Source of the DNA: Scenedesmus sp. PABB004
Taxonomy: Eukaryota
DNA length: 64,000 bases
Direction: 5' to 3'
Assembly: GCA_014905635.1 (NCBI GenBank)
Contig: CM026547.1
Location: 3,534,001-3,598,000, forward strand
Shown here: in pieces, positions 1 to 17,849 of the stretch
Layout: each line of letters begins with the position of its first letter
How positions within the stretch are numbered: position 1 is the stretch's first letter
Position numbers and translations under genes: made by a program
Notes under the pieces: generated by a model
Told to the model about the DNA's origin: nothing
Database searches by the model: none
The model's input: only the letters and a program-made list of their open reading frames with translations

Positions 1-56
1 GCCTGCGGCGGCGGCGCCGCGTCCGACGCGCCCGCGCCGCCGCCGGCGCGCCGCAG

Positions 57-1512
57 GGACCCGCACCAGCGCCCGACCGCCAAGGAGGCGCTGAAGCACC
101 CCTGGCTGCAGGGCAACAGCAGCGAGCGCAGCATCGGCAAGCAGATCGACGTGAGCGTCGTCGCGCGCATCCAGCGCTTTGCTCAGAACAACCGCTTCAA
201 GCGCGGCGTGCTGCGCCTCATTGCGGAGGAGCTGCTCGCGCGCCCCGGCGCGCTCGCTGCCGAGTCGGCGCTCGCCGCCGAGGCGGCGGCCGCCGGCGGC
301 GGCGCCGCCGCGGGCTGGCCCGCCGCGAGCCCGAGCAGCGGCAACCCGATCATCCACGACCCGCACGGCAAGGCGATGCAGGAGATTTTCCGCAGCCTGG
401 AGCTCACGGGCGACGCGGTCGACCGCGAGCGCGCGGCGGTCGCGCTGAGCCGGTCGGGGTACAAGCTTGACCCGAGCGAGGTCGGGCGCCTGCTGGAGCA
501 GGTCGACACGAGCAACAGCGGCAAGGTCCGCCGCGGCGCGCTCGCGGCGAGCCAGATCGACTGGCGCTACCTGCAGCAGAACCAGATGAGCGACTGGCTC
601 GACATCGCGCGCCGCGCGTTTGCCTGCCTCGACAAGGACGCCGACGGCGCGCTGAGCGTGGCCGAGATCATGGACAGCCTGCGCGCCAAGCTGCCGCCCG
701 ACGAGCTGCGCCTCACTGTGCAGCAGGCCATGCTCGACGCGGGGCACGAGGGTGAGCGAGCGGCGCCGCGCGGCGGGCGGCGGCGCCGGCAGCCCGCGCC
801 GGCGGCTGGCTGGCTGCGGCAGCGCCGCCGCCCCGCTCGCGCGCGCGCCCACACCGTGCCCCCGCGCCGCGCCCGCGCCGCAGAGGACGCGGAGCACATG
901 GACTTTGAGGGCTTCCTGCGCATGCTCAAGGTCGGCAGCGTGGACAGCCTCGACCAGTACGACGCGCGCTGGGACCGCCCGCTCGCGTCGTCGTCGATCG
1001 GGTCCATCGACCGCCTGCAGTCGCTGCTCGACGTCTCGCAGCACGGCAGCGACGCCGGCAGCACGCGCGGGCAGGGGCTCTACGCGGGCGTGGCGCCCGC
1101 GGGCGTCGGCGCCGCCGCGCCGGGCGCCGCGCCGGGCGCCGGGGCCGCCGACTACAGCGACAAGTCGTGGCACAAGCCGATGGTCAACTTTAAGTTTGAC
1201 TTTGGGCACGAGTTCATCGGCCGCAAGCTCAACGACGCGCCCGCGGCGGCGGCGCAGGGCCCGCCGCAGACGCGCGGCGCGCCCGACGCGGCGCCCGAGC
1301 TGCCGCCGGCCGCGCCCGCGCCCGCGCCCGCGGGCGGCATCAGCGCGAGCAGCTACTTCAACAACGGCGCCGTGCGCGGCGGCGGGCACTTTGACAAGCG
1401 CATGCACGGCGCGTCGCTCTACCGCAACCAGGTCGTCGCGCCCGGCCCCGCCGCCAAGCACGCGGGCGCGCCCCTGCTCGCGTCGCACGCGCTGCCGACG
1501 GTCAAGGAGTGA
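57..1512 (+). CDS. Calcium-dependent protein kinase-like protein, 3' part (kinase end, junction, degenerate EF-hands); 5' end is upstream of the window
   Basis: After the acceptor at 55-56 the exon reads DPHQRPTAKEALKHPWL (kinase subdomain XI), then junction VVARIQRFAQNNRFKRGVLRLIAEEL and EF-hand-like loops VDTSNSGKV and LDKDADGALSVAE. Intron ~752-883; stop TGA 1510-1512. Confidence 0.8.
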
Positions 1513-2068
1513 GCGGGGGGAGGGGGAGGGGAGGGGCAGGGCAGCCCTCGGCTGCCCCTTTTTTGCGGCCCGCGGCGTGTGCCGCGCCGCCAGAACCTCA
1601 TACACGCGGCTCTGAGCCGCCGCCCGCCTGGCCTGTACACGAGGCTTGATTGATTGGCGCGCAACCGCTCACCCACCGAGCGTGCTGCGGCGCCGCTAGC
1701 GAGTGGCTCGACTGTGTCTGGCAGCGGGCGCTGGGGCGCGAGCGCGCGGGCGGCAAGGCCCTTGTGGCTGTGCCGACCCGCTGGTGATGCGTGGACTGTC
1801 TTGTTGCGTGCGTGGGCTGTTTTGTGCTGCCGGCACTTGAAGCTGGCAGCGGCCCTTCACACGGCGTAGTAAAGTGGGGCGCTTGTGGCCTGCCTTGTGT
1901 GGCCGAGCGCGCCGCGGAGGAGGAGCGTGGGAGGTGAGGGTCCGGCGTGTAGCACAACGCGGCGGCACAACGCGTCAGTTCAGCACGCACACCTCGGGCC
2001 GCCGCCCGCTGAGCAGGCAGAGCCCCCGCAGCAGCCGGGGCCAGGCCCGGTCAGAAGCAAGAGGCTGC

Positions 2069-5000
2069 ATGCGGCGGCACGCCCCACGATGGGCGGCAGC
2101 GAGCGCGTGGCGGGCAGCAGCAGCGGCGGCGGCAGCAGCGCGCTCTGCTGGGCGTGCCGCGGCGCCCCCAGCATGCACCTCCTTGCTGGCAGCGGCGTGG
2201 CCGGCAGCAGGCGCAGCAGCGCAGGCGCGCGGCTGGTTCTCGTTCGCGTTTGGCGGCGGCGACGAGCCGAGAGCGCCGACCTACCCGCAGCGGCCGCATC
2301 GCTTCCGCCTGGGCGAGCTCGAGGTGGAGGACGACCTCAGGTGCGTGTTGCGCGTCCGTCCGGCAGCTGCGGCACGCGCAGGGCGGCACGGCGGCGCGCT
2401 GATGGCGCCGCTGCCACGGCCCGCAGCTGGCTCGCCGACCATGAGGCGGCCAGGCCCTACCTGGAGCAGGAGCAGCGCTACGCCGAAAGCGTCCTGGCCC
2501 GCTGGTCGGGGCTGGCCGACCGGCTGCTGCGCGAGTTGCGCAGCTGCGCGGCGCAGGTGCGGCGCGGCGCGGCGCGGCGCGGCGCGCGGTGCGCGGTGGC
2601 GCGCCGCTCCGTCCTGGGGCGCGCGGCGAGGCTGGGCCGCCGCCGCGTCGGCAGGCCAACGACCCGCCCGAGCGCGTGGGGCCCTACACCTACCTCACCG
2701 CCGCCAACCCGCACGGCCCCGACACCATCCTGCGGCGGTCCGAGATTGGCGCGGAGCAGGTCGTGCTCTCCGCGGCCATCATGGCACGCGACGCCACCCG
2801 CCTCTCGCGCCGCCTGGCCGCGCCGGTGCAAGGCACGGCCGCAGCGGCCACGCCGCGCGCGCGCGCGCGCCGCGGGCGGGGGCTCAGCGCGCGCCGCGCC
2901 GCGCCGCGCCGGCCAGGCGACGTGCTCGGCGGGCTCAAGCTGTCGCGCGACCAGCAGCTGCTGGCGTACAGCCTGCAGGTCGGGCAGGGCTCGGACCGCT
3001 TTGCCGCTGTCGTGCGGGACCTGCGCACTGGTACGGGCCGCCCCGCTGCTGCGCACCCGCCGCCGCGCGCGCCGGGCGCCCGTGGCCGAGAGCGCGCCGC
3101 CGCGCCCCCCCGCAGGGCGCACGCTCAGCAGCTGCGTTCTGCCCAGCGCCAGCAGCTTCGAGTGGTCGGCCGACGGTCGCTGCCTGTATTACTGCGTGCC
3201 GGACGCCGCCGGGCGGCCCAGCAACGTGCGGCATGCGCCGGGGCGCGCTGCCGCCGCCGCCGCGCCGCCGCCCACGCGCCGCCGCCGCGCGGCGGCACCG
3301 CGCGGGGGGGCGCAGGTATACCGCCGGCTGCTGGGCGGCGCCGCGGGCGAGCCGGACGCGCTGCTGTACTCGGAGCCCGACCCCAAGCACTATGTGACGC
3401 TCACGCGCACCAAGGACTGGCGCTACGTGCTCATCAACAGCCACGCCAAGCTCAGCTCCGAGGCGCGCCAACGCCGGCGCGCGCCGCGCAGCGCCGCGCC
3501 GCGCCGCGCGTGCGTGGGCCCAGCCCCTGCCCGCGCCGCCGCGCGCGCAGGTGCACCTGCTCGACGCGGCCGAGCCGGCGGCGGCGCCGCTGTGCGTGGC
3601 GCGCCGCGCGCCGGGGGTTGAGTACTTTGTGGAGCACAGCCGCGGCCACTTGCTGCTGCTCACCAACGCGCGCCTCAGCGGCAGCGCCGCCGGTAGCGAT
3701 GGCAGCGGCGGCGCCGGCAGCGAGGGCAGCGGCGGCGGCGCCGGCAGCGAGGGCAGCGGCAGCGGGCCAGAGCCCGGCTGCGGCGGCGGCGGCGGGCCCG
3801 AGCCCGTCGCCAGCGACTACAGCCTGGCCACCGTGCCCGTCGCAGAGGCGGCGGCGGGGCGCGGCGGCGTGGCGGCGTGGCGGCTGCTCGTGCCGGAGCG
3901 CCCCGGCGCGGCGGTGACCGACATGGATGCGTTCCGGTGCTGCCTGGTGCTGCACGAGCTCGCCGAGGGCCGCCCGCAGCTGCGGCTCGTGCGCCTGGCG
4001 GAGCAGTCGCGCGGGCGGGGGCGGCCGCCCGAGCTGGCGGTCGCGGGCGAGCAGGAGGTGGCGCTGCCGGACTGGGCGCTCGCGGCGCGGCCGGGCATCA
4101 ACCAGGACCACGCCGCCGCGGGGCTGCGGCTCTATGCGAGCAGCCCGGCGCTGCCCGAGGTGCCGCTGGAGCTGGACCTCGCGACGGGGCAGCTGCACGG
4201 CGTGGGGCGGCGCGGGCGGCGCGTGGAACAGGCGGAGCCGCCGCCCGGCGCGGCGGCGCCGCCCGCGGGCCCGCCGCCCGGGCCCGACCAGGGCCTCGAG
4301 TGCAGCCGCCTGTGGGCGACGGCGCGCGACGGCGCGCGCGTGCCGGTGACGCTGCTGCGCGCGCGCGGCGCGGCGGCCCAGGCGGGCGGCGGGCCGCTGC
4401 TGGTGGAGGTGTATGGAGCGTACGGCCAGGCGCTGGAGGCGGACTTCCGGCCGCACCGCCTGCCGCTGCTGCAGCGCGGCTGGTCCGTCGCGCTCGCGCA
4501 CGTGCGTGGCGGCGGCGAGCTGGGCCGCAGGTGCGGGCGAGGGGCGGCCCGGCGGCATGGGGAGGCGCAGGGCTGGGGGCGGGCGCTGCCGCAGCGCGCG
4601 CCGCGCGCGCCGCCGCGTCGCGGCCCGCGACACGCCCGCATCTGCGCGCGCGCGCGCGCAGGTGGCACGCCGGCGGGCGGCAGCTGCTCAAGGCCAACTC
4701 GGTGCACGACCTGCTCGCCTGCGTCGACCTGCTGGTCGATGCGGGCGTGACGAGCCGCGGCCGCGTCGCGGGCCACGCGGCGAGCGCGGGCGCGCTCACG
4801 CTCGCGGCGGCGGTCAACGCGGCGCCGGGGCGTTTGCGGCAATCGTGCTCGAGGCGCCGTTTGTCGACTGGGCGGGCGCGATGGGCGGCGACGGCGCGGC
4901 GCACCCGCTCGCGCGGCACGAGGTCGACGAGTGGGGCGATGCCGCGGCGCAGCCCGAGGTCGCCGCGCTCGTGCGGGGGCTGTGCCCCTTCACCAACCTG

Positions 5001-8618: not shown

Positions 8619-9025
8619 CGCCGGCGCGCCCGCCCGGCGCGCTGCGGCGCGGGCTGCGGCGTGTGTGGCCCCGAGCTCCGCCTCGCCGCGCGTCGCCTGC
8701 GGCCTGCCTGCCCGTCCGGGGGCGCTGCGCAGTCGCTGCGGGGCGGGGCGCCAAGAGCGGGCGCCTGTGGGCGCGGCGCCTCGCGCGGGGACGGGGGCGG
8801 GCGCGGTGGCGCGGTGGTTGTGCGGCCTCCACGCGGGGCAGGACCTGGCTGTGACGTGCGCTGCGCAGCTGCGGTCTGGACAGGACGGCGGCGCGGCGGG
8901 GGGCTCAAAGCGCGCGGTCCAGCCCGCCACCATCCTCCTGCGCCCGCCGAGTTGCCTCACGCCCGCCACCGGGCGCGCTTCCAGTCGCCCCGCGCCTCAC
9001 GCACGCGTCGTCGCTCGCCAGCAGC

Positions 9026-10405
9026 ATGGCCTCCTCCTCAGCGATGCGCGCCGCGGGCGCGGTCGCCCGCCTGGCGTGGGCCCGCGCCGCGCAGGGCGCG
9101 CCCGGCGTGGCCGGCGCGCCCGCCCTGACGCAGCTGCTGCCGGCGCTGGCGCAGGTGCGACGCGCGGCGCGCGGCGGGGACCCGCGGATGGGGCGCGGGG
9201 CGCAGCAGCAGACGGGCCCACGCGCACCCGCACCCGCAGGCGCGCCCCCGGGGCGGCTGGGGCTGCGGCGACGCCTGGACCGGCGTCATGGGCCCGTCCG
9301 GCCGGCACCTGGCCACCGACGGCGGCGAGACGCGGCGCACCGGCGGCGCGCAGGCCGGCGACAGCAGCGGCGACGACGACGCCGGGCCCCGCGCCGCGGG
9401 CGTTGCGGCGGACGAGGCCGCCGGCAGCAGCGAGCTGTCGGAGCTGCAGGCGCTGCTGGACAAGGCGCAGGAGGAGGTGGGGGCCGGCCGGCGGCGGCGG
9501 CCACGGGCGGCGGCCACGGGCGGCCGCGCGCGCGGGCGGCCGCGCGGGCTCCGGCCACTGCTCACGGCGGCGGCGGCGCCCCGCCGTCGCAGGCGACGAG
9601 CTTCAAGGACCGCTGGCAGCGCAGCCACGCGGAGATGCAAAACCTCATCGCGCGGCAGGCGCGGGAGAAGGAGACGATGCAGACGTACGCCGTGCAGGTG
9701 CGGCGGCGGCGGGCGGCGGCGGGCGGCGGGGGGCGGTGGCGCGGGCCAGCGCGCGGGCCAGCCCCCGGCCTCCGACGCCCGCCGGACTCTGGCGCCCGCG
9801 GGTGGCCGGGCGCGCAGAAATTTGCGCAGTCGCTGCTGGAGGTCGCGGACAACCTGGAGTCGGCCGCCAAGGCGGTGCCGCCGGAGGTGCTGCAGCCAGG
9901 CGCGGAGCTGAGCGCTGAGAAGGCGCTGGCCTACCTCAGGGCGCTGCTGGAGGGCGTGCAGGCGACGGAGCGCGTGCTGCTCAAGGTGCGTGCTGCGCCG
10001 GCGGGCGGCCGCGCGGCCGCGGCCGAATCGCTGCCCCCGCGTGCGCGCCATGTGCCGGGCTGAGCCCCCTGCGTGCTGCGGCGCCGCAGACGATGGCGTC
10101 CAAGGGCGTCGAGCGCATCGAGACCGCGCCGGGCGACGCGTTTGACCCCAACGCGCACGAGGCGATGTCGACCGTGCCCGCCGCCACCCCGGACGCCAAG
10201 CCCGGCTCCGTGGCCATCGTCTGGCAGGTGCGCGGCGGCCGCCCCGCGGCGCAGGGGGCCCCGGCGGCTGCCAGTCAGCGCGGGCCCGCGCGCCGGCGGC
10301 CTGCGCCAACCGAGCTGCCGTCCGCCCGCCGCGGCCCCTCAGTCCGGCTACAAAATTCACGACCGCGTCCTGCGGGCGGCCAAGGTCATCGTGGTGCAGG
10401 AGTGA
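9026..10405 (+). CDS. grpE: GrpE nucleotide exchange factor, probably mitochondrial
   Basis: Arg/Ala-rich presequence; DRWQRSHAEMQNL, KFAQSLLEVADNLE, LLEGVQATERVLLK, GDAFDPNAHEAM and last exon SGYKIHDRVLRAAKVIVVQE. Confidence 0.92.
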
Positions 10406-10823
10406 GCGCCGCCGCCGCCCCAGCGCGCGCGGTGCAGCAGCGTGGTGACGCCGCGCCGCGGTCGGGGGCTGCCGTTGTTGCACCGGGCCGCCGCAGCGGC
10501 GCGCGGCCCCGCGGGGTGGCTCTGATGCGGTCACGGCCGTGTAAAGCGCCGGGAGCGGCGGCGCGTGGCACGGTGTCGGCGGCGGTTGCAGCTGGCTGCT
10601 GCGTGTCATGCTGGCCCGGCCCGGCCGACCGCGCGGCCCGTGCCGCGGCGCCGCCCGCGCGCTGGCGCATGGCAGCGGCGTGGGCGCGCGGACGGCGCGC
10701 CGAGGGGGCCTTTTCCGCTGCGCACGGCGCGGGGCGGTCCCGGCCGGCAGAAGCCTGAACTCAAGTTCAAGTTTGCGCAGCAGCCAGGCCCCCCGCCGCG
10801 CCGCCGCCGCCCAGTCGACGCCG
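10323..10823 (+). repeat. Inverted duplication, copy 1 (GrpE last acceptor, last exon, 3' region); partner 15284-15783
   Basis: By-eye comparison: reverse complement of 15284-15783 matches 10323-10823 with only scattered substitutions and small indels (e.g. aagcctgaactcaagttcaagtttgcgcagcagcc in both). Confidence 0.95.
10540..10544 (+). promoter_or_regulatory. TGTAA polyadenylation signal of GrpE
   Basis: Chlorophyte-type TGTAA ~135 nt after the GrpE stop codon. Confidence 0.6.
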
Positions 10824-10843
10824 CGCCGCCAGGCGCCAGCGCG

Positions 10844-12125
10844 TCAGCAGTCCTTGGCGGCGCCGGCGGCATCAAAGTCCACGATGCGCCGCGTGTAGGC
10901 GATCGGCAGCGCGACGACGCCCGCGAGCGCGAGCAGCGGCCGCCAGCGCGCGTCGCCCAGGGCGGGCCAGTCAGCCAGCAGCACGAGGTAGACGGCCAGC
11001 TCGATCAATTGGATGGTCGCGCCCAGGTAGTCGCCAACCACGCCGCCAATGACCGAGGTTCCGTACAGCCCCGCCGCCGCGCTCACCGCCAGCACGGTCG
11101 CGACCACCAGCGCGCCGCGCGCGGCGCCGAGCAGCGCGAGCGGCACCAGCGCGGCGCTCGCGGCGCTCAGCGCCACGCGCCGCGCCGTCAGCAGGCGCCG
11201 GCTCTGCGCGAGGGGGTTGTAGAGGCCCTGCTTGGCGTCCTCCTCGTCCTCCAGGTAGTCGCAGGTGTAGATGAGCGCGGCGCTGCTCCAGCGGCTCGCG
11301 CAGTGCGCCGCCACGAGCGCGGGCGCCGCCGCGCCGCCGAGCGCAGCGAGCGCGGCGAGCTTGAGCTGCAGCACCAGCGCCACGCCGACCAGGGCGTACG
11401 TGCCCACGCTGCGGGCGCGTGGTGGCGCGGCGGCGCGGCGGCGCGGGGCGGTCGGTGACGCTCCCAGCAGCACCGCCGCGAGCGGGGCCGCCACGCCGCC
11501 GGCCGCGTCGGCGCCGCGCTGCTGCGCGTCCCTCTCACCGCGAGTCCTTCATGATGGCCAGGATCTGGCGCTTGCCCCAACCGCCGCCAAAGCCATCAAA
11601 CGAGTCGGCGAGCCCGTCCTCGTGGAAGCAGCCGGTGAGCCAGACCGTCGAGAGCGTGCTGACGCCCGCCGCGACCGCGGGCGGCAGCACCGCCGCGGCG
11701 GCGCGCAGGAACGCGGCGCCCCAGAGGCCGACCACGGCCCCGAGGAGCGGGAACCAGGCCATCGCGCGCATGAGCATCGCGGGGTGGTGGTCAACGTGCC
11801 GCGGCACCGGCAGGCGCGTGATGAACGCGAGGCCTGGCAGCACGCAGCGCGCGGCGTGGGCGCGCTGGCGCGGCGTGGGCGCGCTGGCGCGGCGCGCGCC
11901 CGCACGGCGTGGGCGCGCTGGCGCGGCGCGCGCCCGCCACGGCGCGCCGTGCTGCGCACCCGTGAAGAAGACGCGCAGCTCGCCGTTGCGCAGGGAGGCG
12001 GCGTCGTAGGGGTCCCCGCCGTCGCGCGTGCCCGGGCCGCGCGCAGCAACGTCAGCCGCTGGCACCACGCCGGCCGCCCGCAGCGCGGCCGTCGACGGCG
12101 GCCCGCCGCGCTTGTTCGGCGCCAT
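10844..12125 (-). CDS. cobS: Cobalamin-5'-phosphate synthase (adenosylcobinamide-GDP ribazoletransferase), 3 exons
   Basis: FITRLPVP, AWFPLLGAVVG, LTGCFHEDGLADSFDGFGGG, ILAIMKDSR/VGTYA and IGGVVGDYLGATIQLIE are CobS hallmark motifs; several TM segments. GT-AG introns ~11959-11835 and ~11538-11410. Confidence 0.93.
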
Positions 12126-13067
12126 CGGGCAGCCGCGCCCTACAGGTGCCGCTGCTGGCCGCGCCGATGGCGGGGCTCACTGCAGCGCCGCTGCGGCTCA
12201 ACGCGCCCGGCAGCCGGCGCTGCCGGCCAGGCGGCCGCCGCTGCTTGCGGCTGGTGCCGCCGCTGCCCGGCCGCGGCCTCTGAGCTGCGCGCCTCGTGAG
12301 GATCACACTTGCGCGCTCTGATGCAGTGAGGGCGGCCGGCGGGAGCGCCTGGCGCGCGTGGCAGGGGCGGCGGCGGCACATGAGCAGCTGCGCTCGAACC
12401 CTGCCGCGGCGACGCGCCCGCCCGCCCGGCCTCCCCTGGCTCAGGCCGCGAAGCCAGCAGCTTGCGAGAGCTGTGCGAAGCTGCTCGCGCACCAGGCGCC
12501 TGGTTACCGACCGCGCTCGGCCAGCGCGCACGCGGCGGCCAGCCTCGGGTGCGCGAGTGGCACAGGAGTCGCGAGGCCGCCCGCGCAGCTCGAGTGCAGC
12601 CAGCGCTCCGTGCCAGAAAACTCGCACCCCCACCGCCGTCCCGGTGGCTCGCGGCCCGCGCTGCCGGGCGGCAGCACAGGCGGCACGGCCGCCGCGCGCC
12701 CTCGCTGGACCGCGTGCAAGATGCACCCAAAACACAGCTGCCCGAGCGCCTGGCTGCCGCCAAAAGAACAGACACTCCGCGCAGCGCTCGCACGCCCGGC
12801 GGCGCGCTGCCGCCGCTGGCGGCGTTGCCCGGGACGCTCACGCGCCGTCGCCGCCCGCCCGCGCACCTGCCTAGCTGCCGGCAGCGGCCCGCTGCCGCCA
12901 CCGCCTACCTGCCTGCCTGCCTACGCAGCAACACCCACCACACGCGTGCGCGCGCCGGGGGCGCCGGCTGCGGGACCGGCGCGGCGAGACCGCCCGGCCA
13001 GCCCGCGCGCGCGCGCGCGCGCTGGCCGGCAGCCAGCCGCGCCCGGCGGGCCGCTGGCTGCGGCGCG

Positions 13068-15045
13068 TCACTCGTCGAGGATGTCGAGCGGCGCCGCGAC
13101 CATCGCGGCCTCGCAGAACTTGGTGTTGCTGTACTTCTTGACCACCGCCTGCAGGCTGCTGCCGTGCGCGGCCGCGACGAGGCGCACGACCTCCTTGGCG
13201 ACGTGCAGCACGTCCGCCTTGCCGTGCGCCGCGTGCGCCGCGAGCGCGGGCGGGTAGGGGTCGTCCTTCTTGAACGCGCGCAGCGCGACGTACATGATGC
13301 CCGCCGCGAGCTCGCTGTAGCTGTGCCGCAGCATGCCGTGCTCGACGAGGCAGAGCTCGGCGCAGTACGCGACAAAGAGCGCGAGGTGCTTCTCGTAGTG
13401 CACGCCCGCGGCCTTGAGCAGGCGCGCGAGGAACTGGTAGCTCGTGGGCAGGCTGAGGTTGTAGCCGAGCGCGGCGAGCATGTCCTTCTCGGTCGACAGG
13501 ATCTGCGCGCGCGTGTAGGCCTTGTCGCTGATGTACACAAAGTCGCGCACCTCGGGCGCCCAGATCTCCTCGTACTTGCTCGCCACGAGCATCGCCGTCA
13601 CGCCGACCTGGCGGGGGCGCGTGGCGCGTGGGCGCGGCGCGGGGGCGGCGCGGGCGCGACGGCGGGCGCGGCGCGGGCGCAGCGCGGGCGCAGCGCGGAG
13701 TGGCGCAGCGCGGCACTCACCAGCTGCAGGTTCTTGCGCGTGACTTGCCGCACCGCGAGGTAGCGGTCGATGAGGTTGATGGTCAGGAAGAGCGACTCGG
13801 GCATCAGCTGCGCGGCGGCGTGGCGGCGCGGCGGCGCGATGGCACGTCGGTGCGGCGCGCGGGCAGCGCGGGCAGCGCGGGCAGCGCGGGCAGCGCGGGC
13901 AGCGCGGGCAAAGCGACCCTGCGGCGGCGGGCGGCCCGCGGCGGCGCACCTTGAACTTGAGGTGCACCTCGACGAGCCAGTCAATGAGGATGGCGCGCAT
14001 CTTCTCGTTGATGTCCGGCTGTGCCGCGGCGGCGGCGCGGCGGCGGCGCGGCGGCGGCGCCTGGGCGGCCGCGCTTGCGGGGGCGGCCGCGGGCGCTGCG
14101 GGCGCCGCCGGGCCCGCCGCGGCCGCGCGCGGGTCCGGGCGCGCACCTGGCGGTCCATGTAGTCGACGGGCGCGCGGAAGCGCGGCTCGACGCGCCGAAA
14201 GTAGGCGTAGATGTCGTTGACGTACTGGCACTCGGCCAGGTGGTTGCCGCGGTCGGGGGCGTCGATGTCGGGCAGCGGCTCGCGGCGCGGCGGCGCCGCC
14301 GGCGTGGGCAGCGACCCCGACCGCCGCCCGCCGGCGCGCGGCCGCGGCTGCGTGGTCAGCCCCGCGCCCTGCGCCAGCGCGCGCGCTTTCGAGCGCGTGA
14401 TGCGCACGGGCGCGTCGCCCAGCTGCTGCTGCGCCGCCTCCGGCGCACCGCCGGCGGCGGGCTGCGCGCCCGGCTCGGCCGCTGCTGCTGCTGCTGCTGC
14501 GGGGGCGGGCTTCTGCGCGGCCTGCGACGGTCACAGCGGCGGCGGCGGCAGCACGGGTCACGCGCCGCGGCGGCGGCCGCCCCTAAGGCGCGGCCAGCCC
14601 TGCCGGCGGCTCGAGCGCGCCGCCAACAACGCGCCGGCGCGCGCGCGACTGCCTGGCAGCCGGCGCCAGCTGCTCCACTCGGCGCGCCGTGGCTCCCGGC
14701 GCGGTGCCGGGGCCGGCACGGCGCCCGCCGCGGCGCCGCGCGGCCGCGCCGCGGGCTTGCGCGCCGCCACCGCTCGCGCGCCCCCCACCTTGTCCAGCTG
14801 CTGCTGCTTGCCCGGCGGCGGCGCCTGCACGTTGCCGATGTCGCCGAGCGCCCTGGGAGCGGCGCGCGCGGGCCAGGGGCGGGGGTTGGGGTCAACAACC
14901 ACGCGCAGCAGCATCGATGCTGCCTCCCGGCCGCCCCGCACCTGCGCTTGCTGCTCGGCGCCGCCTTGCCCGCCCGGGCGGCGACGTTCTCGTCCACCGC
15001 CATCGCCCGCGCCGCGGCCAGGCTGGACTTGCGCTTGGGCTGCAT
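13068..15045 (-). CDS. CYCB1: B-type mitotic cyclin
   Basis: D-box RALGDIGN; cyclin box [71 protein letters not shown]. Confidence 0.92.
13856..13910. repeat. 9-bp tandem repeat (GCGCGGGCA) x ~6 in a cyclin B intron
   Basis: Read directly from the sequence. Confidence 0.85.
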
Positions 15046-15283
15046 CGTCCTGCCTCGCTGCGGCACCCGGCCCGCGAGCGCTCGGCCACGCCGCGGCCGG
15101 CTAGCAGGCCATGCTCGTCGCGCGCAAGACAGCGGCGGACACCTCCTCGCGGCGCGGCGAGGCGAGCGGGCGCCCGGGCGAGGCGAGCGGCGCCCGGGTG
15201 TTGTTGCCGCTGGCCGGCGAGCGCAGCGAGGCCTGGGCGCGCCTGGGGTGCTCGGGCGGCGCGAGACTCTAGCGCCCGGCCGT

Positions 15284-15783
15284 CGGCGTCGACTGGGCGG
15301 CGGCGGCGCGGCGGGGGGCCTGGCTGCTGCGCAAACTTGAACTTGAGTTCAGGCTTCTGCCGGCCGGGACCGCCCCGCGCCGTGCGCAGCGGAAAAGGGC
15401 CCTCGGCGCGCCGTCCGCGCGCCCACGCCGCTGCCATGCGCCAGCGCGCGGGCGGCGCCGCGGCGGGGGCCGCGCAGTCGGCCGGGCCGGGCCAGCATGA
15501 CGCGCAGCAGCCAGCTGCAACCACCGCCGACACCGCGCCACGCGCCGCCGCTCCCGGCGCTTTAGAGGGCCGCGGCCGCATCAGAGCCACCCCGCCGGGC
15601 CGCACGCCGCTGCGGCGGCCCAGTGCAACAACGGCAGCCCCCGAGCGCGGCGCGGCGTCACCGCGCTGCTGCACCGCGCGTGCTGGGGCGGCGGCGGCGC
15701 TCACTCCTGCACCACGATGACTTTGGCCGCCCGCAGGACGCGGTCGTGAGTCTTGTAGCCGGACTGAGGGGCCGCGGCGGGCG
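15284..15783 (-). repeat. Inverted duplication, copy 2, carrying an orphan GrpE last exon (~15701-15763)
   Basis: Minus strand encodes SGYKTHDRVLRAAKVIVVQE* after an intact cccctcAG acceptor, with no upstream GrpE exons. The TGTAA of copy 1 reads TCTAA here (15562-15566). Confidence 0.95.
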
Positions 15784-15809
15784 TCACACGGGCTGCTGCC
15801 AGAGGCTCA

Positions 15810-17044
15810 TCACCCACCCGGCGGCGCCGCCGCCAGCACGTCCTCCAGCGACGCCATGCGCAGCAGCGCGGCGGCCGAGCGCAGCAGCGGCAGCGCCAGC
15901 AGCGCGCCCGTGCCCTCGCCCAGGCGCAGCCCCATGTCCAGCGGCGGCGCGCCGAGGCCCAGCTCGGCGACGAGAACCGCCGTGCCGGCCTCGGCGCTGC
16001 GGTGCGACAGGAAGAGGCTGCGCGCCGCCGCGGGCGCCGCGCGCACGGCCGCCAGCGCGGCGGCGCCCGCGACAAAGCCGTCCACAAGGACCGGCATGCC
16101 CCGCTCCGCTGCCTCGAGCACCGCGCCCGCCATCGCAGCGAGCTCGAGCCCACCTGCGCGGCGGCGCGCCGCGCCGCGCCGCGCGGCCGGCGGTGCCCTC
16201 TGCTCAGCGGCGCGCCTCGCCGGGCGCGCCTGCGCCTGCTCTCACCCCCGCTCCCCGCTGCGGCTGGTGCTCACCGACGGCCCGGAGCGCCCTGAGCGGC
16301 CCCGAATCTATCAGCTCCCTGTTGGCCGCCAGCGCGGCCGCCACCACGCGCCGCTTGGCCGCCAGGCCCGCGTCGTCCACGCCTGGGGCACGCGGCGCGT
16401 GCGCGCACGTGAGCGCCGCGCCGCCGCCGGCCGCGGCGCGCGGCGCCCGCCGCCGCCGCCGCTCGCCCACCTGTGCCGCGGCCGCACACGTCCTCCGGGC
16501 TCGCGCCCGAGAGCGCCGCCAGCAGCGCGGCCGCCGCGGTGGTGTTGCCGATGCCCAGCTCCCCGACCGCGAGCGCCCACTCGCCGTCCGCCGCGCCCGC
16601 CGCGCGCGCGGCGCGGCGCGCGGCCGCGACCGCGTCTGCGCCCGCGCCGAGGGCCGCCGCGAGCTCGCCCTCGCTCATCGCGGGTCCCAGCGTGACGCAC
16701 GCGCTCCCGCGCGCGGCCTTGCGGTGCAGCACGTCCGCCGCGCCGGCGCCCGGCGCGCCCGCGCCCGCGCCCGCGGCCGTGACGTCGGCGTCGACGCCGA
16801 CGTCGACGAGCACCACCCCGGCGCCGTTGGCGGCCGCGAGCACGCTGCTCGCCGCCTGTCCGGCCGCGATGGCGTGGAACATCGCAGGCGTGACCGTGCG
16901 CGGGTACGCGCTGATCTCTGGGTGGCTCGCCGCCGCGCCGTGGTCGGCCGCAAACAGCAGCAGGCTGCCGCCCGGAGACACGCGCGGCGCGGCGCTGCGC
17001 TGCAGCGCGGCCAGCCTGGCGCGCGAGCGGCGGCGGGCGCGCGA

Positions 17045-17097
<53 letters not shown>

Positions 17098-17263
17098 GGG
17101 CGTGCGCGTGGCGCTGCGGCGGCGCTGCGGCCGCCGGCACTCACTGCACGGCCCAGGCCTCCAGACCCCCAAGGGATCCAGGCGGCTTGGCCTTAGCGTC
17201 CAGCGCCGTGCGCGCGGCGGCCGCCGCGGCGTCGTAGCCATCATCGCCAGCGTCTGCCGCCAT
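15810..17263 (-). CDS. cobT: Nicotinate-nucleotide:dimethylbenzimidazole phosphoribosyltransferase (4 exons)
   Basis: KAKPPGSLGGLE, LFAADHG, SAYP, VDVGV, GELGIGNTTAAAA, GRGTG-VD, GGLELAAMAG, VLVDGFV, SHRSAEAG and PLDMGLRLGEGTGA (catalytic Glu motif). Confidence 0.95.
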
Positions 17264-17849
17264 GCGCGTGGAGCCGCTGCGTTTGCAGATGGTCGCTTTC
17301 GCTTGGTGGTGGACTGGGCGGGTGAGGGCCAGCGGCGGCGGCAGGGGAATGCGGCGGCGGCGGCGGCGGCGGCGGCGCGGCAGCAGCAGCGCGCGAGGCG
17401 TCGCGGTTTTGACGAGCGGTGCGCTGAGACGCGGCGGCGCAAGCTGGGGGCGCGTCTCCGCCACCCTAGGGACGCTGACACAGCGTGAGCGCGGCTCCCG
17501 GCGCGCCTGGCGGCTCGAGCAGCGCGCACGCCCGCAGCACGCGCCCCCGCCCGCTGCCGCCGCCGCCTGCTGCCGCCCCCTGCCAGCGGCGTCCGGGGAG
17601 GTAGCACTCATTGTGGGAACCTTGCGGGAAGTCCTGCGGCCACGCAGGGGGGCCGGACCGCGCGGGCGCAGGGCGGGCCCGCCCCATCAGGCCTGCCGAG
17701 GCGCGCCTGTCGGCCGCTCAAGGCGCAGCGGCGAGCGCCTCTCGAGCGTCCCGGGCCTGCGCAGGCATGCGGCGCTCCTGAGCGGAGATCGGTGCAGCGC
17801 GGAGCCGCTCGCGGCGCGCGGCGCAGCAGCAGCGGCGCGCCGGCGCGGC

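Follow-up and report, generated by a model that had tools for sequence, protein, structure and literature searches.

In a 64-kb stretch of the Scenedesmus sp. PABB004 genome (the window; contig CM026547.1, positions 3,534,001 to 3,598,000 of the forward strand), we identified candidate genes for two consecutive late steps of cobalamin (vitamin B12) biosynthesis, cobT and cobS, which lie on the minus strand in the order cobT, cyclin B, cobS (Table 1). CobT would combine dimethylbenzimidazole (DMB) with nicotinate mononucleotide (NaMN) to give alpha-ribazole-5′-phosphate, and CobS, a membrane enzyme, would link this product to a corrinoid. The distance from the cobS ATG (12125) to the cobT stop (15810) is 3,684 bp and holds cyclin B and one arm of an inverted repeat, in agreement with an earlier reading made from the letters of this DNA (the sequence-only reading), which had placed just cyclin B and a repeat in a gap of ∼3.7 kb.

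Table 1. Coordinates of cobT, cobS and associated features in the window
Feature	Position	Strand	Details
cobT (NaMN:dimethylbenzimidazole phosphoribosyltransferase)	15810..17263	-	371 amino acids; Pfam DBI_PRT and checked model
cobT exons	17263-17145, 17015-16471, 16382-16275, 16153-15810	-	stop 15812-15810
cobT introns 1-3		-	GTGAGT..CAG 129 nt; GTGGGC..CAG 88 nt; GTGAGC..CAG 121 nt
cyclin B, between cobT and cobS	13068..15045	-	∼412 amino acids; Pfam Cyclin_N and Cyclin_C (13071-14582)
cobS (cobalamin-5′-phosphate synthase / adenosylcobinamide-GDP ribazoletransferase)	10844..12125	-	341 amino acids; Pfam CobS and checked model
cobS exons	12125-11960, 11833-11539, 11408-10844	-	stop 10846-10844
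cobS introns		-	GTGCGC..CAG 126 nt, in frame; GTGAGA..CAG 130 nt
GrpE	8855..10405	+	split over three frames; converges on cobS; source of the repeated segment; Pfam, two ORF pieces (8855-10755)
Inverted-repeat arm 1	10323..10836	+	last exon and 3′ flank of GrpE
Inverted-repeat arm 2	15272..15783	-	copy of GrpE last exon and 3′ flank

Models of cobT and cobS were read from the sequence and then checked by script; both have an ATG start, a terminal stop and zero internal stops, and their five predicted introns (88–130 nt) all run from GT to AG and restore the frame. All 400 stop-to-stop open reading frames (ORFs) of at least 100 amino acids (aa) in the window were scanned with Pfam (E ≤ 1e-5). 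Two cobT exon ORFs matched DBI_PRT (PF02277), at 15810–16241 (E = 6.2e-35, 121.5 bits) and 16274–17140 (E = 3.3e-34, 119.1 bits), covering profile positions 34–324 and exceeding the cut-off of 22.6 bits, while the first exon piece alone (17144–17686) scored 15.8 bits, under that cut-off. The cobT model is identical to residues 1–369 of the deposited protein P0001 and its N-terminus is similar to those of P0004 and P0249. The CobT motifs GELGIGNTT and LGEGTGA are present and fit the invariant residues G191/G193/N194 and G332/E333/G336 of our CobT alignment (A2). The LGEGTG stretch holds the catalytic glutamate of the Salmonella structures; the last exon, this LGEGTGA stretch included, aligns with the solved CobT chains 1wx1 and 1d0s. 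Intron 1 of cobT contains a long GCC/GGC triplet run (repeat family D1; 17027–17116).

For cobS, matches to CobS (PF02654) were found at 11538–12176 (E = 1.5e-24, 87.8 bits, profile 2–89) and 10844–11548 (E = 5.6e-15, 56.5 bits, profile 89–207), with a cut-off of 23.2 bits. The CobS core (HEDGLAD..DG.GGGW and MKDSRxG) is intact and fits the invariant H173, D175, G176, D179, D182, G185–W188 and D199–R201 of an alignment of 20 eukaryote-type CobS proteins (A1). The MAPNxRG opening in the same alignment is near-invariant at M1 and P3, and the window gene reads MAPNKRG at 12125. Intron 1 is exactly the 42-residue gap in the alignment with the uninterrupted homologue P0134; it is in frame and therefore sequence alone cannot prove it. 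The full motif sets and spliceosomal introns claimed by the sequence-only reading were recovered, one of the predicted introns being confirmed as an alignment gap, and the profile search it had proposed placed both families above their curated cut-offs. An N-terminal extension of ∼90 aa (P0134 residues 1–90; window 12125–11960), with the MAPNxRG opening and an EARGxGTxE motif, is common to the CobS proteins of eukaryotes. This extension is missing from bacterial matches, which begin near residue 92, and a scan of bacterial genomes with P0134 returned ordinary CobS only (≤44% identity, without the N-terminal extension) and no eukaryote-type CobS. Intron 1 of cobS (11834–11959) has a short tandem repeat inside.

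The GC content of the window is ∼79% (0.75–0.83 in each 2-kb bin), which is host-like, as had been claimed, given the published 78.5% for the PABB004 genome of 39.8 Mb and 7,092 genes (PMC12571836, Table 1). A candidate cobT exon gave a 100% match to the deposited Scenedesmus sp. PABB004 protein KAF8073024.1, encoded on a 4.85-Mb contig. Neither His_Phos_1 (CobC type) nor CobU nor any other B12 family was found among the 400 window ORFs, consistent with the earlier statement that cobC and cobU/P are not visible in the window. ‘Cluster’ is a generous word here: the two genes encode consecutive steps and are 3.7 kb apart, but they are separated by an unrelated gene, the window lacks cobC for the third step, and co-expression is hypothetical.

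We then considered linkage of the two genes in other eukaryotes, using relatives found by searches with CobT and CobS parts and by protein-cluster look-ups. In Nannochloris ‘desiccata’, CobS (g03630/KAH7621289) adjoins CobT (g03631/KAH7621290) by gene and accession number, and CobS and CobT accession numbers are also consecutive in three more protein sets. The Tetraselmis striata genes TSEL_015782 and TSEL_015783 have consecutive gene numbers, Raphidocelis GBF88539 and GBF88556 are both on one 796-kb contig, and Astrephomene Agub_g77 and Agub_g26 share an 11-Mb scaffold. On a eukaryotic metagenome contig of 10,853 nt (L001; ∼10.9 kb, GC 0.55), which also carries a geranylgeranyl-reductase-like gene and tubulin chaperone D, the genes cobS and cobT converge, with their 3′ ends 312 bp apart. 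Seven more eukaryote-type CobS/CobT pairs come from the same source on identically sized contigs (24818, 12785, 6686, 31201, 6043, 4624 and 2697 nt); three of these contigs (24,818, 12,785 and 6,686 nt) were not among the loci recovered by the metagenome scan with CobS. In the synteny check proposed by the sequence-only reading, the genes are thus adjacent by number in Nannochloris and Tetraselmis, on one contig in Raphidocelis and Astrephomene, and unlinked in Chlamydomonas, Gonium and Pavlovales; because the genes are adjacent or fused in several lineages, the result that it named as refuting, unlinked genes in all relatives, was not what we found. By our own arithmetic, two given genes would lie this close in a 39.8-Mb genome with a chance of ∼2 in 10,000.

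In addition to adjacent genes, we found single proteins with both domains. Besides L001, a second locus (L030) gives direct evidence at the DNA level, carrying one ORF of 912 aa (9–2744, plus strand) with a full CobS domain followed by a full DBI_PRT domain. This ORF was searched against 1.84 billion representative proteins and, from the 150 matches listed, the 40 proteins of at least 492 aa were Pfam-scanned. CobS and CobT domains occur together in at least 20 proteins (20 of the 40 long proteins among the matches listed), in the order CobS–CobT in 17 and CobT–CobS in three, namely Sphaeroforma arctica SARC_07750 (P0371, annotated as hypothetical), P0375 and P0419. The CobS–CobT family of L030 spans P0349–P0373, with one member on a 3.9-Mb ENA contig. 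When ten fusions were added to a paired tree, nine had both halves in the eukaryote clades and P0419 fell among bacteria; the CobS half of the L030-type fusions is sister to Pavlovales, and both of their halves lie within the eukaryote clades. The fusions indicate, as far as their domain make-up can tell, that the two predicted activities are coupled in eukaryotes. A predicted complex of CobS (P0134 residues 85–385, A1) with CobT (P0004, A2) scored 0.00 and gave no verdict. Another protein, P0234 (JGI; the end of DBI_PRT and then CobS), was initially taken as a close algal relative with cobT immediately upstream of cobS and is now counted as bacterial, since its best matches (85% to P0180) form a bacterial group just outside the eukaryote clade. 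DBI_PRT is also fused to other partners in P0403, P0421, P0432, P0450, P0482, P0488, P0466, P0475 and P0490; these are His_Phos_1 (CobC type), CobU, nitroreductase (BluB-like, at either end), a diphthamide-synthase-like DUF71, zinc alcohol dehydrogenase and ABC ATPase.

The bacterial arrangement of the genes was examined in 134 fetched loci with CobS (80 from metagenomes and 54 from named genomes), scored by a tblastn script. According to the script, cobT immediately precedes cobS on the same strand in 88 loci, the order is reversed in nine (one being the L030 fusion), the genes converge in two, and 32 have CobS only. Two of the reverse-order calls (L033 and L064) were rejected, as the coordinates of the high-scoring segment pairs show cobT and then cobS; the run-on ORFs of GC-rich DNA had misled the script. 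Overall, cobT is directly upstream of cobS in ∼90 of the 99 loci with both genes, which is also the order on the minus strand of the window.

Phylogenies were inferred by quick IQ-TREE searches with SH-aLRT support and midpoint rooting. In the CobS tree (110 rows), all named eukaryotes form one clade of 57 rows (support 97), comprising green algae, Ulva, Tetraselmis, two ochrophytes, Pavlovales, Euglena and two Blastocladiomycota. In the CobT tree (101 rows), green algae, Pavlovales, Diacronema and Nannochloropsis form one clade of 33 rows (support 96). Window CobS falls in the eukaryote CobS clade and window CobT in the algal CobT clade, each adjoining other Sphaeropleales, so the phylogenetic check proposed earlier places both genes with eukaryotes. 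With this midpoint root, the eukaryote clades are nested among bacteria with adjacent genes. For 47 taxa with both proteins, the 16 eukaryote pairs were monophyletic in each tree (support 99 and 97), and the nearest paired bacterial row in both was L007, from a bacterial contig on which cobT immediately precedes cobS. Adding fusions (65 rows) gave a eukaryotic CobS clade of 30 rows (support 95) and an algal and fusion CobT clade of 28 rows (support 97). Several groups are common to both 65-row trees: eight CobS–CobT fusions, Sphaeroforma with P0375, Volvocales, ctg24818 with ctg12785, and ctg31201 with ctg6043 and ctg4624. All six of the seven size-matched pairs that entered the paired trees are in matching clades. 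Such shared sub-clades are what co-inheritance of the pair predicts, although this is a comparison of groupings and not a formal congruence test. L001 CobT is sister to Nannochloropsis oceanica CobT, and both L001 genes nest among green-algal sequences, which hints that this eustigmatophyte-like cobS/cobT pair was transferred between algae.

On these sequence comparisons, the window genes are the nuclear COBT and COBS of PABB004, orthologues of the Chlamydomonas genes. COBT, COBS and COBC were described in C. reinhardtii, together with 46 further candidate remodellers among marine transcriptomes, by Helliwell 2016, which ties the COB genes to pseudocobalamin remodelling, leaves their origin open and calls for a broader phylogeny. 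The three Chlamydomonas genes (COBT Cre12.g555500, COBS Cre01.g036950 and COBC Cre05.g232550) are on three chromosomes (Helliwell 2016). According to a 2026 preprint, Chlamydomonas needs COBT for remodelling, as a COBT knock-out is unable to grow when supplied with pseudocobalamin and DMB; a knock-out of COBS was not obtained, and the need for COBS is left open (10.64898/2026.08.07.738727). The background on algal remodelling given in the sequence-only reading was thus correct. By analogy with this knock-out and from the protein families, the window enzymes are expected to activate and attach DMB; together with a phosphatase from another locus, they would enable the alga to load DMB onto corrinoids that it scavenges, for example pseudocobalamin.

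We consider it likely that the window holds COBT and COBS orthologues as members of three separate genes and that their linkage is the relic of one operon-type acquisition. In this explanation, eukaryotes would have received the cobT/cobS pair in a single event, the donor being a bacterium whose cobT immediately precedes cobS, and the pair would later have been inherited, or moved, jointly, remaining adjacent in some lineages and becoming fused or broken up in others. Because the pair is spread over several supergroups, its acquisition would have to be ancient unless the pair is mobile. Of the two possibilities raised earlier, a retained cluster or the relic of a single acquisition, such a history fits the adjacency or fusion in several lineages, the shared sub-clades and the nearest bacteria having cobT next to cobS.

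A number of observations weigh against this overall explanation. Unlinked genes are seen in C. reinhardtii (Cre12.g555500 versus Cre01.g036950), Gonium (one gene on scaffold 217, the other on scaffold 3) and Pavlovales CCMP2436 (on two contigs, which measure 345,670 and 438,860 nt), and orientation varies, from the same strand in the window to convergent in L001 and fusions in both orders. Adjacency in Nannochloris and Tetraselmis is read from gene or accession numbers only, the Raphidocelis accession numbers are 17 apart, and identical contig sizes, as in the seven pairs, can coincide by chance among ∼20,000 pairings. Every tree is a quick search with SH-aLRT support only and a midpoint root; Polychytrium CobT lies outside the eukaryote clade on a long branch, and the nearest named bacteria differ between CobS (Gemmatimonadaceae and Rubricoccaceae) and CobT (Bacteroidota metagenome-assembled genomes). 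Furthermore, cobC, cobU and cbiZ are all absent from the 64-kb window, the introns and separate transcripts are known from sequence alone, and Sphaeropleales make methionine via MetE, as stated in PMC12571836.

Other explanations of the locus differ in how they treat its gene structure. The deposited record KAF8073024.1 (‘CYCB2-3’) is a protein of 1,223 aa in which cobT, cyclin B and cobS are merged (10844–17263, minus strand), and a single CobT–cyclin B–CobS protein would accord with the shared strand of the three genes and with the CobT/CobS fusions found elsewhere. However, the splices that it needs skip two natural stops, those of cobT and cyclin B, and the conserved start of CobS is lost; the linkers come from reading through the inverted repeat and are of low complexity, and zero cyclin domains occur in the natural fusions scanned (40 long proteins among the matches listed). 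Cyclin B has its own ATG and stop and a destruction-box pattern, RxxLxxIxN, at residue 34 (its model is approximate, being taken from the P0001 exon map, with two intron borders off by a base or two). Because cobT and cyclin B have their own stops and cobS keeps the MAPNKRG start of its orthologues, we concluded that the sequence encodes three predicted genes and that the merged record is probably an annotation artefact; a true three-part protein is very improbable. Merged gene models may be common in this GC-rich assembly, because 7,092 genes in 39.8 Mb is what widespread merging would give and stop codons are rare at high GC. We give practically no credence to bacterial contamination or a very recent non-functional insertion. 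Although both families are bacterial in origin and window CobT is ∼50% identical to bacterial proteins, this idea is refuted by the five GT–AG introns, the host GC content, eukaryotic genes on both sides, intact reading frames, the 4.85-Mb contig and the position of both genes inside eukaryote-only clades beside other Sphaeropleales. Contamination had been dismissed by the sequence-only reading too.

The remaining explanations accept two nuclear genes and differ in why these are close. If the closeness in Scenedesmus were due to chance or to secondary juxtaposition, for example by rearrangement at the inverted repeat, it would have no bearing on ancestry. Rearrangement clearly touched this spot, and Raphidocelis, the closest named relative with data, has accession numbers 17 apart; nevertheless, coincidence is improbable when set against the ∼2 in 10,000 calculated above and the independent adjacency or fusion in at least four other eukaryotic lineages, and the linkage in PABB004 does not appear to be due to chance. 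Alternatively, linkage could have been kept by selection in a true two-gene metabolic cluster, through co-regulation, co-inheritance of a patchy trait or joint transfer. Proximity has outlasted changes of orientation (window, L001, L030 and Sphaeroforma), fusions arose in both orders, and the L001 pair nests among green-algal sequences in both trees, as co-transfer would give. Still, slow decay of an ancestral adjacency would produce the same picture, several lineages have both genes unlinked, an unrelated gene sits between cobT and cobS here and co-regulation is hypothetical for this alga, so we regard maintenance by selection as rather unlikely. Among these explanations, we favour the relic of a single operon-type acquisition.

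A more far-reaching version of the acquisition hypothesis is possible, although on balance we lean slightly against it. It holds that an operon-derived cobT/cobS unit stayed together across several supergroups of eukaryotes, namely in green algae, in eustigmatophyte-like algae, in a fusion family allied to haptophytes and in an ichthyosporean, that it fused at least twice, in opposite orders, and that it is perhaps mobile as a pair. In Scenedesmus, a recent inversion bounded by the 515-nt inverted duplication would have separated a tail-to-tail pair and brought cyclin B between its members. If true, this unit would imply direct hand-over of alpha-ribazole phosphate from CobT to membrane-bound CobS, which is speculative.

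The pair can be set beside several known systems. Compared with Chlamydomonas, Scenedesmus has orthologous nuclear genes in the same eukaryote clades and with the same expected role (activity here is predicted), but the genes are on different chromosomes there and 3.7 kb apart on one strand here. In Salmonella enterica, cobUST represents the bacterial cobT–cobS operon segment. The Scenedesmus locus resembles such operons in having both enzymes in the same order and on the same strand, and in the nearest bacterial loci the genes abut; it differs in its introns, separate starts and stops, the gene in between, the ∼90-aa CobS extension and the lack of cobU or cobC nearby. The halves of SARC_07750 and of the L030 fusions group with the window genes in the eukaryote clades, but each fusion is one polypeptide, whereas Scenedesmus has two genes with cyclin B between them. 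In the yeast siderophore operon, which Kominek et al. reportedly described in 2019, a bacterial operon is said to have been kept as linked genes in a eukaryote. As there, consecutive steps of bacterial origin are still neighbours in Scenedesmus after gaining eukaryotic gene structure; unlike there, the unit has only two genes and covers several eukaryotic supergroups.

Eukaryotic COBT and COBS genes were themselves already known, and their recurrent pairing is a modest new observation. In the literature searched, which did not extend to subscription journals or bioRxiv supplements, we found no report of eukaryotic COBS/COBT linkage or fusion, Helliwell 2016 and a preprint on horizontal gene transfer in diatoms included. 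Algal conversion of cyanobacterial pseudocobalamin to usable B12 affects which species win in phytoplankton communities, and the conserved pair, together with the fusions, could serve as a simple genomic marker for likely remodellers. The pair is a further candidate case of bacterial operon structure surviving in eukaryotes. With the fusions, it also leads to the hypothesis of a coupled CobT–CobS unit, which bears on the preprint's question of whether COBS is needed. Merging of gene models conceals genes from keyword surveys. In PMC12571836, Sphaeropleales are reported to be without cobalamin-biosynthesis genes; PABB004 and Raphidocelis do carry the late-step genes cobS and cobT, and the hiding of cobT and cobS in a ‘cyclin’ record may be a reason for the reported absence.

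The inverted repeat (515 nt; arms 490/515 or 95% identical by a repeat finder and blastn) brackets cobS and cyclin B. Arm 1 ends 7 bp from the cobS stop and has a TGTAA at 10540. Arm 2 begins 26 bp downstream of the cobT stop, in the direction of cobT, and occupies most of the 764 bp that precede the cyclin B ATG; there, TGTAA is changed to TCTAA. Arm 1 was taken as the original because TGTAA is kept only there. The C-terminal peptide of GrpE can still be read from arm 2, with a single difference. The present layout, in which GrpE and cyclin B both keep their flanks, could have arisen by an inversion in which a breakpoint was duplicated. If this inversion were reversed, cobS and cobT would lie tail to tail, ∼46 bp apart, a geometry that would be true of any inverted repeat. 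These features suggest, speculatively, a recent inversion of cobS and cyclin B in this alga.

Elsewhere in the window, the Pfam matches were to prolyl oligopeptidase, Arf, GrpE, a ferredoxin-like domain, MORN and LRR repeats, Nop56/58, peptidase M3, valyl-tRNA synthetase, CIA30, class Ib tRNA synthetase, Myb and RRM, and by these matches the genes flanking cobT and cobS are ordinary eukaryotic genes. The TGTAA pentamer occurs only three times in the 64-kb window, both strands counted, and because of this scarcity the genome may use another polyadenylation word than green algae usually do, or use theirs only rarely.

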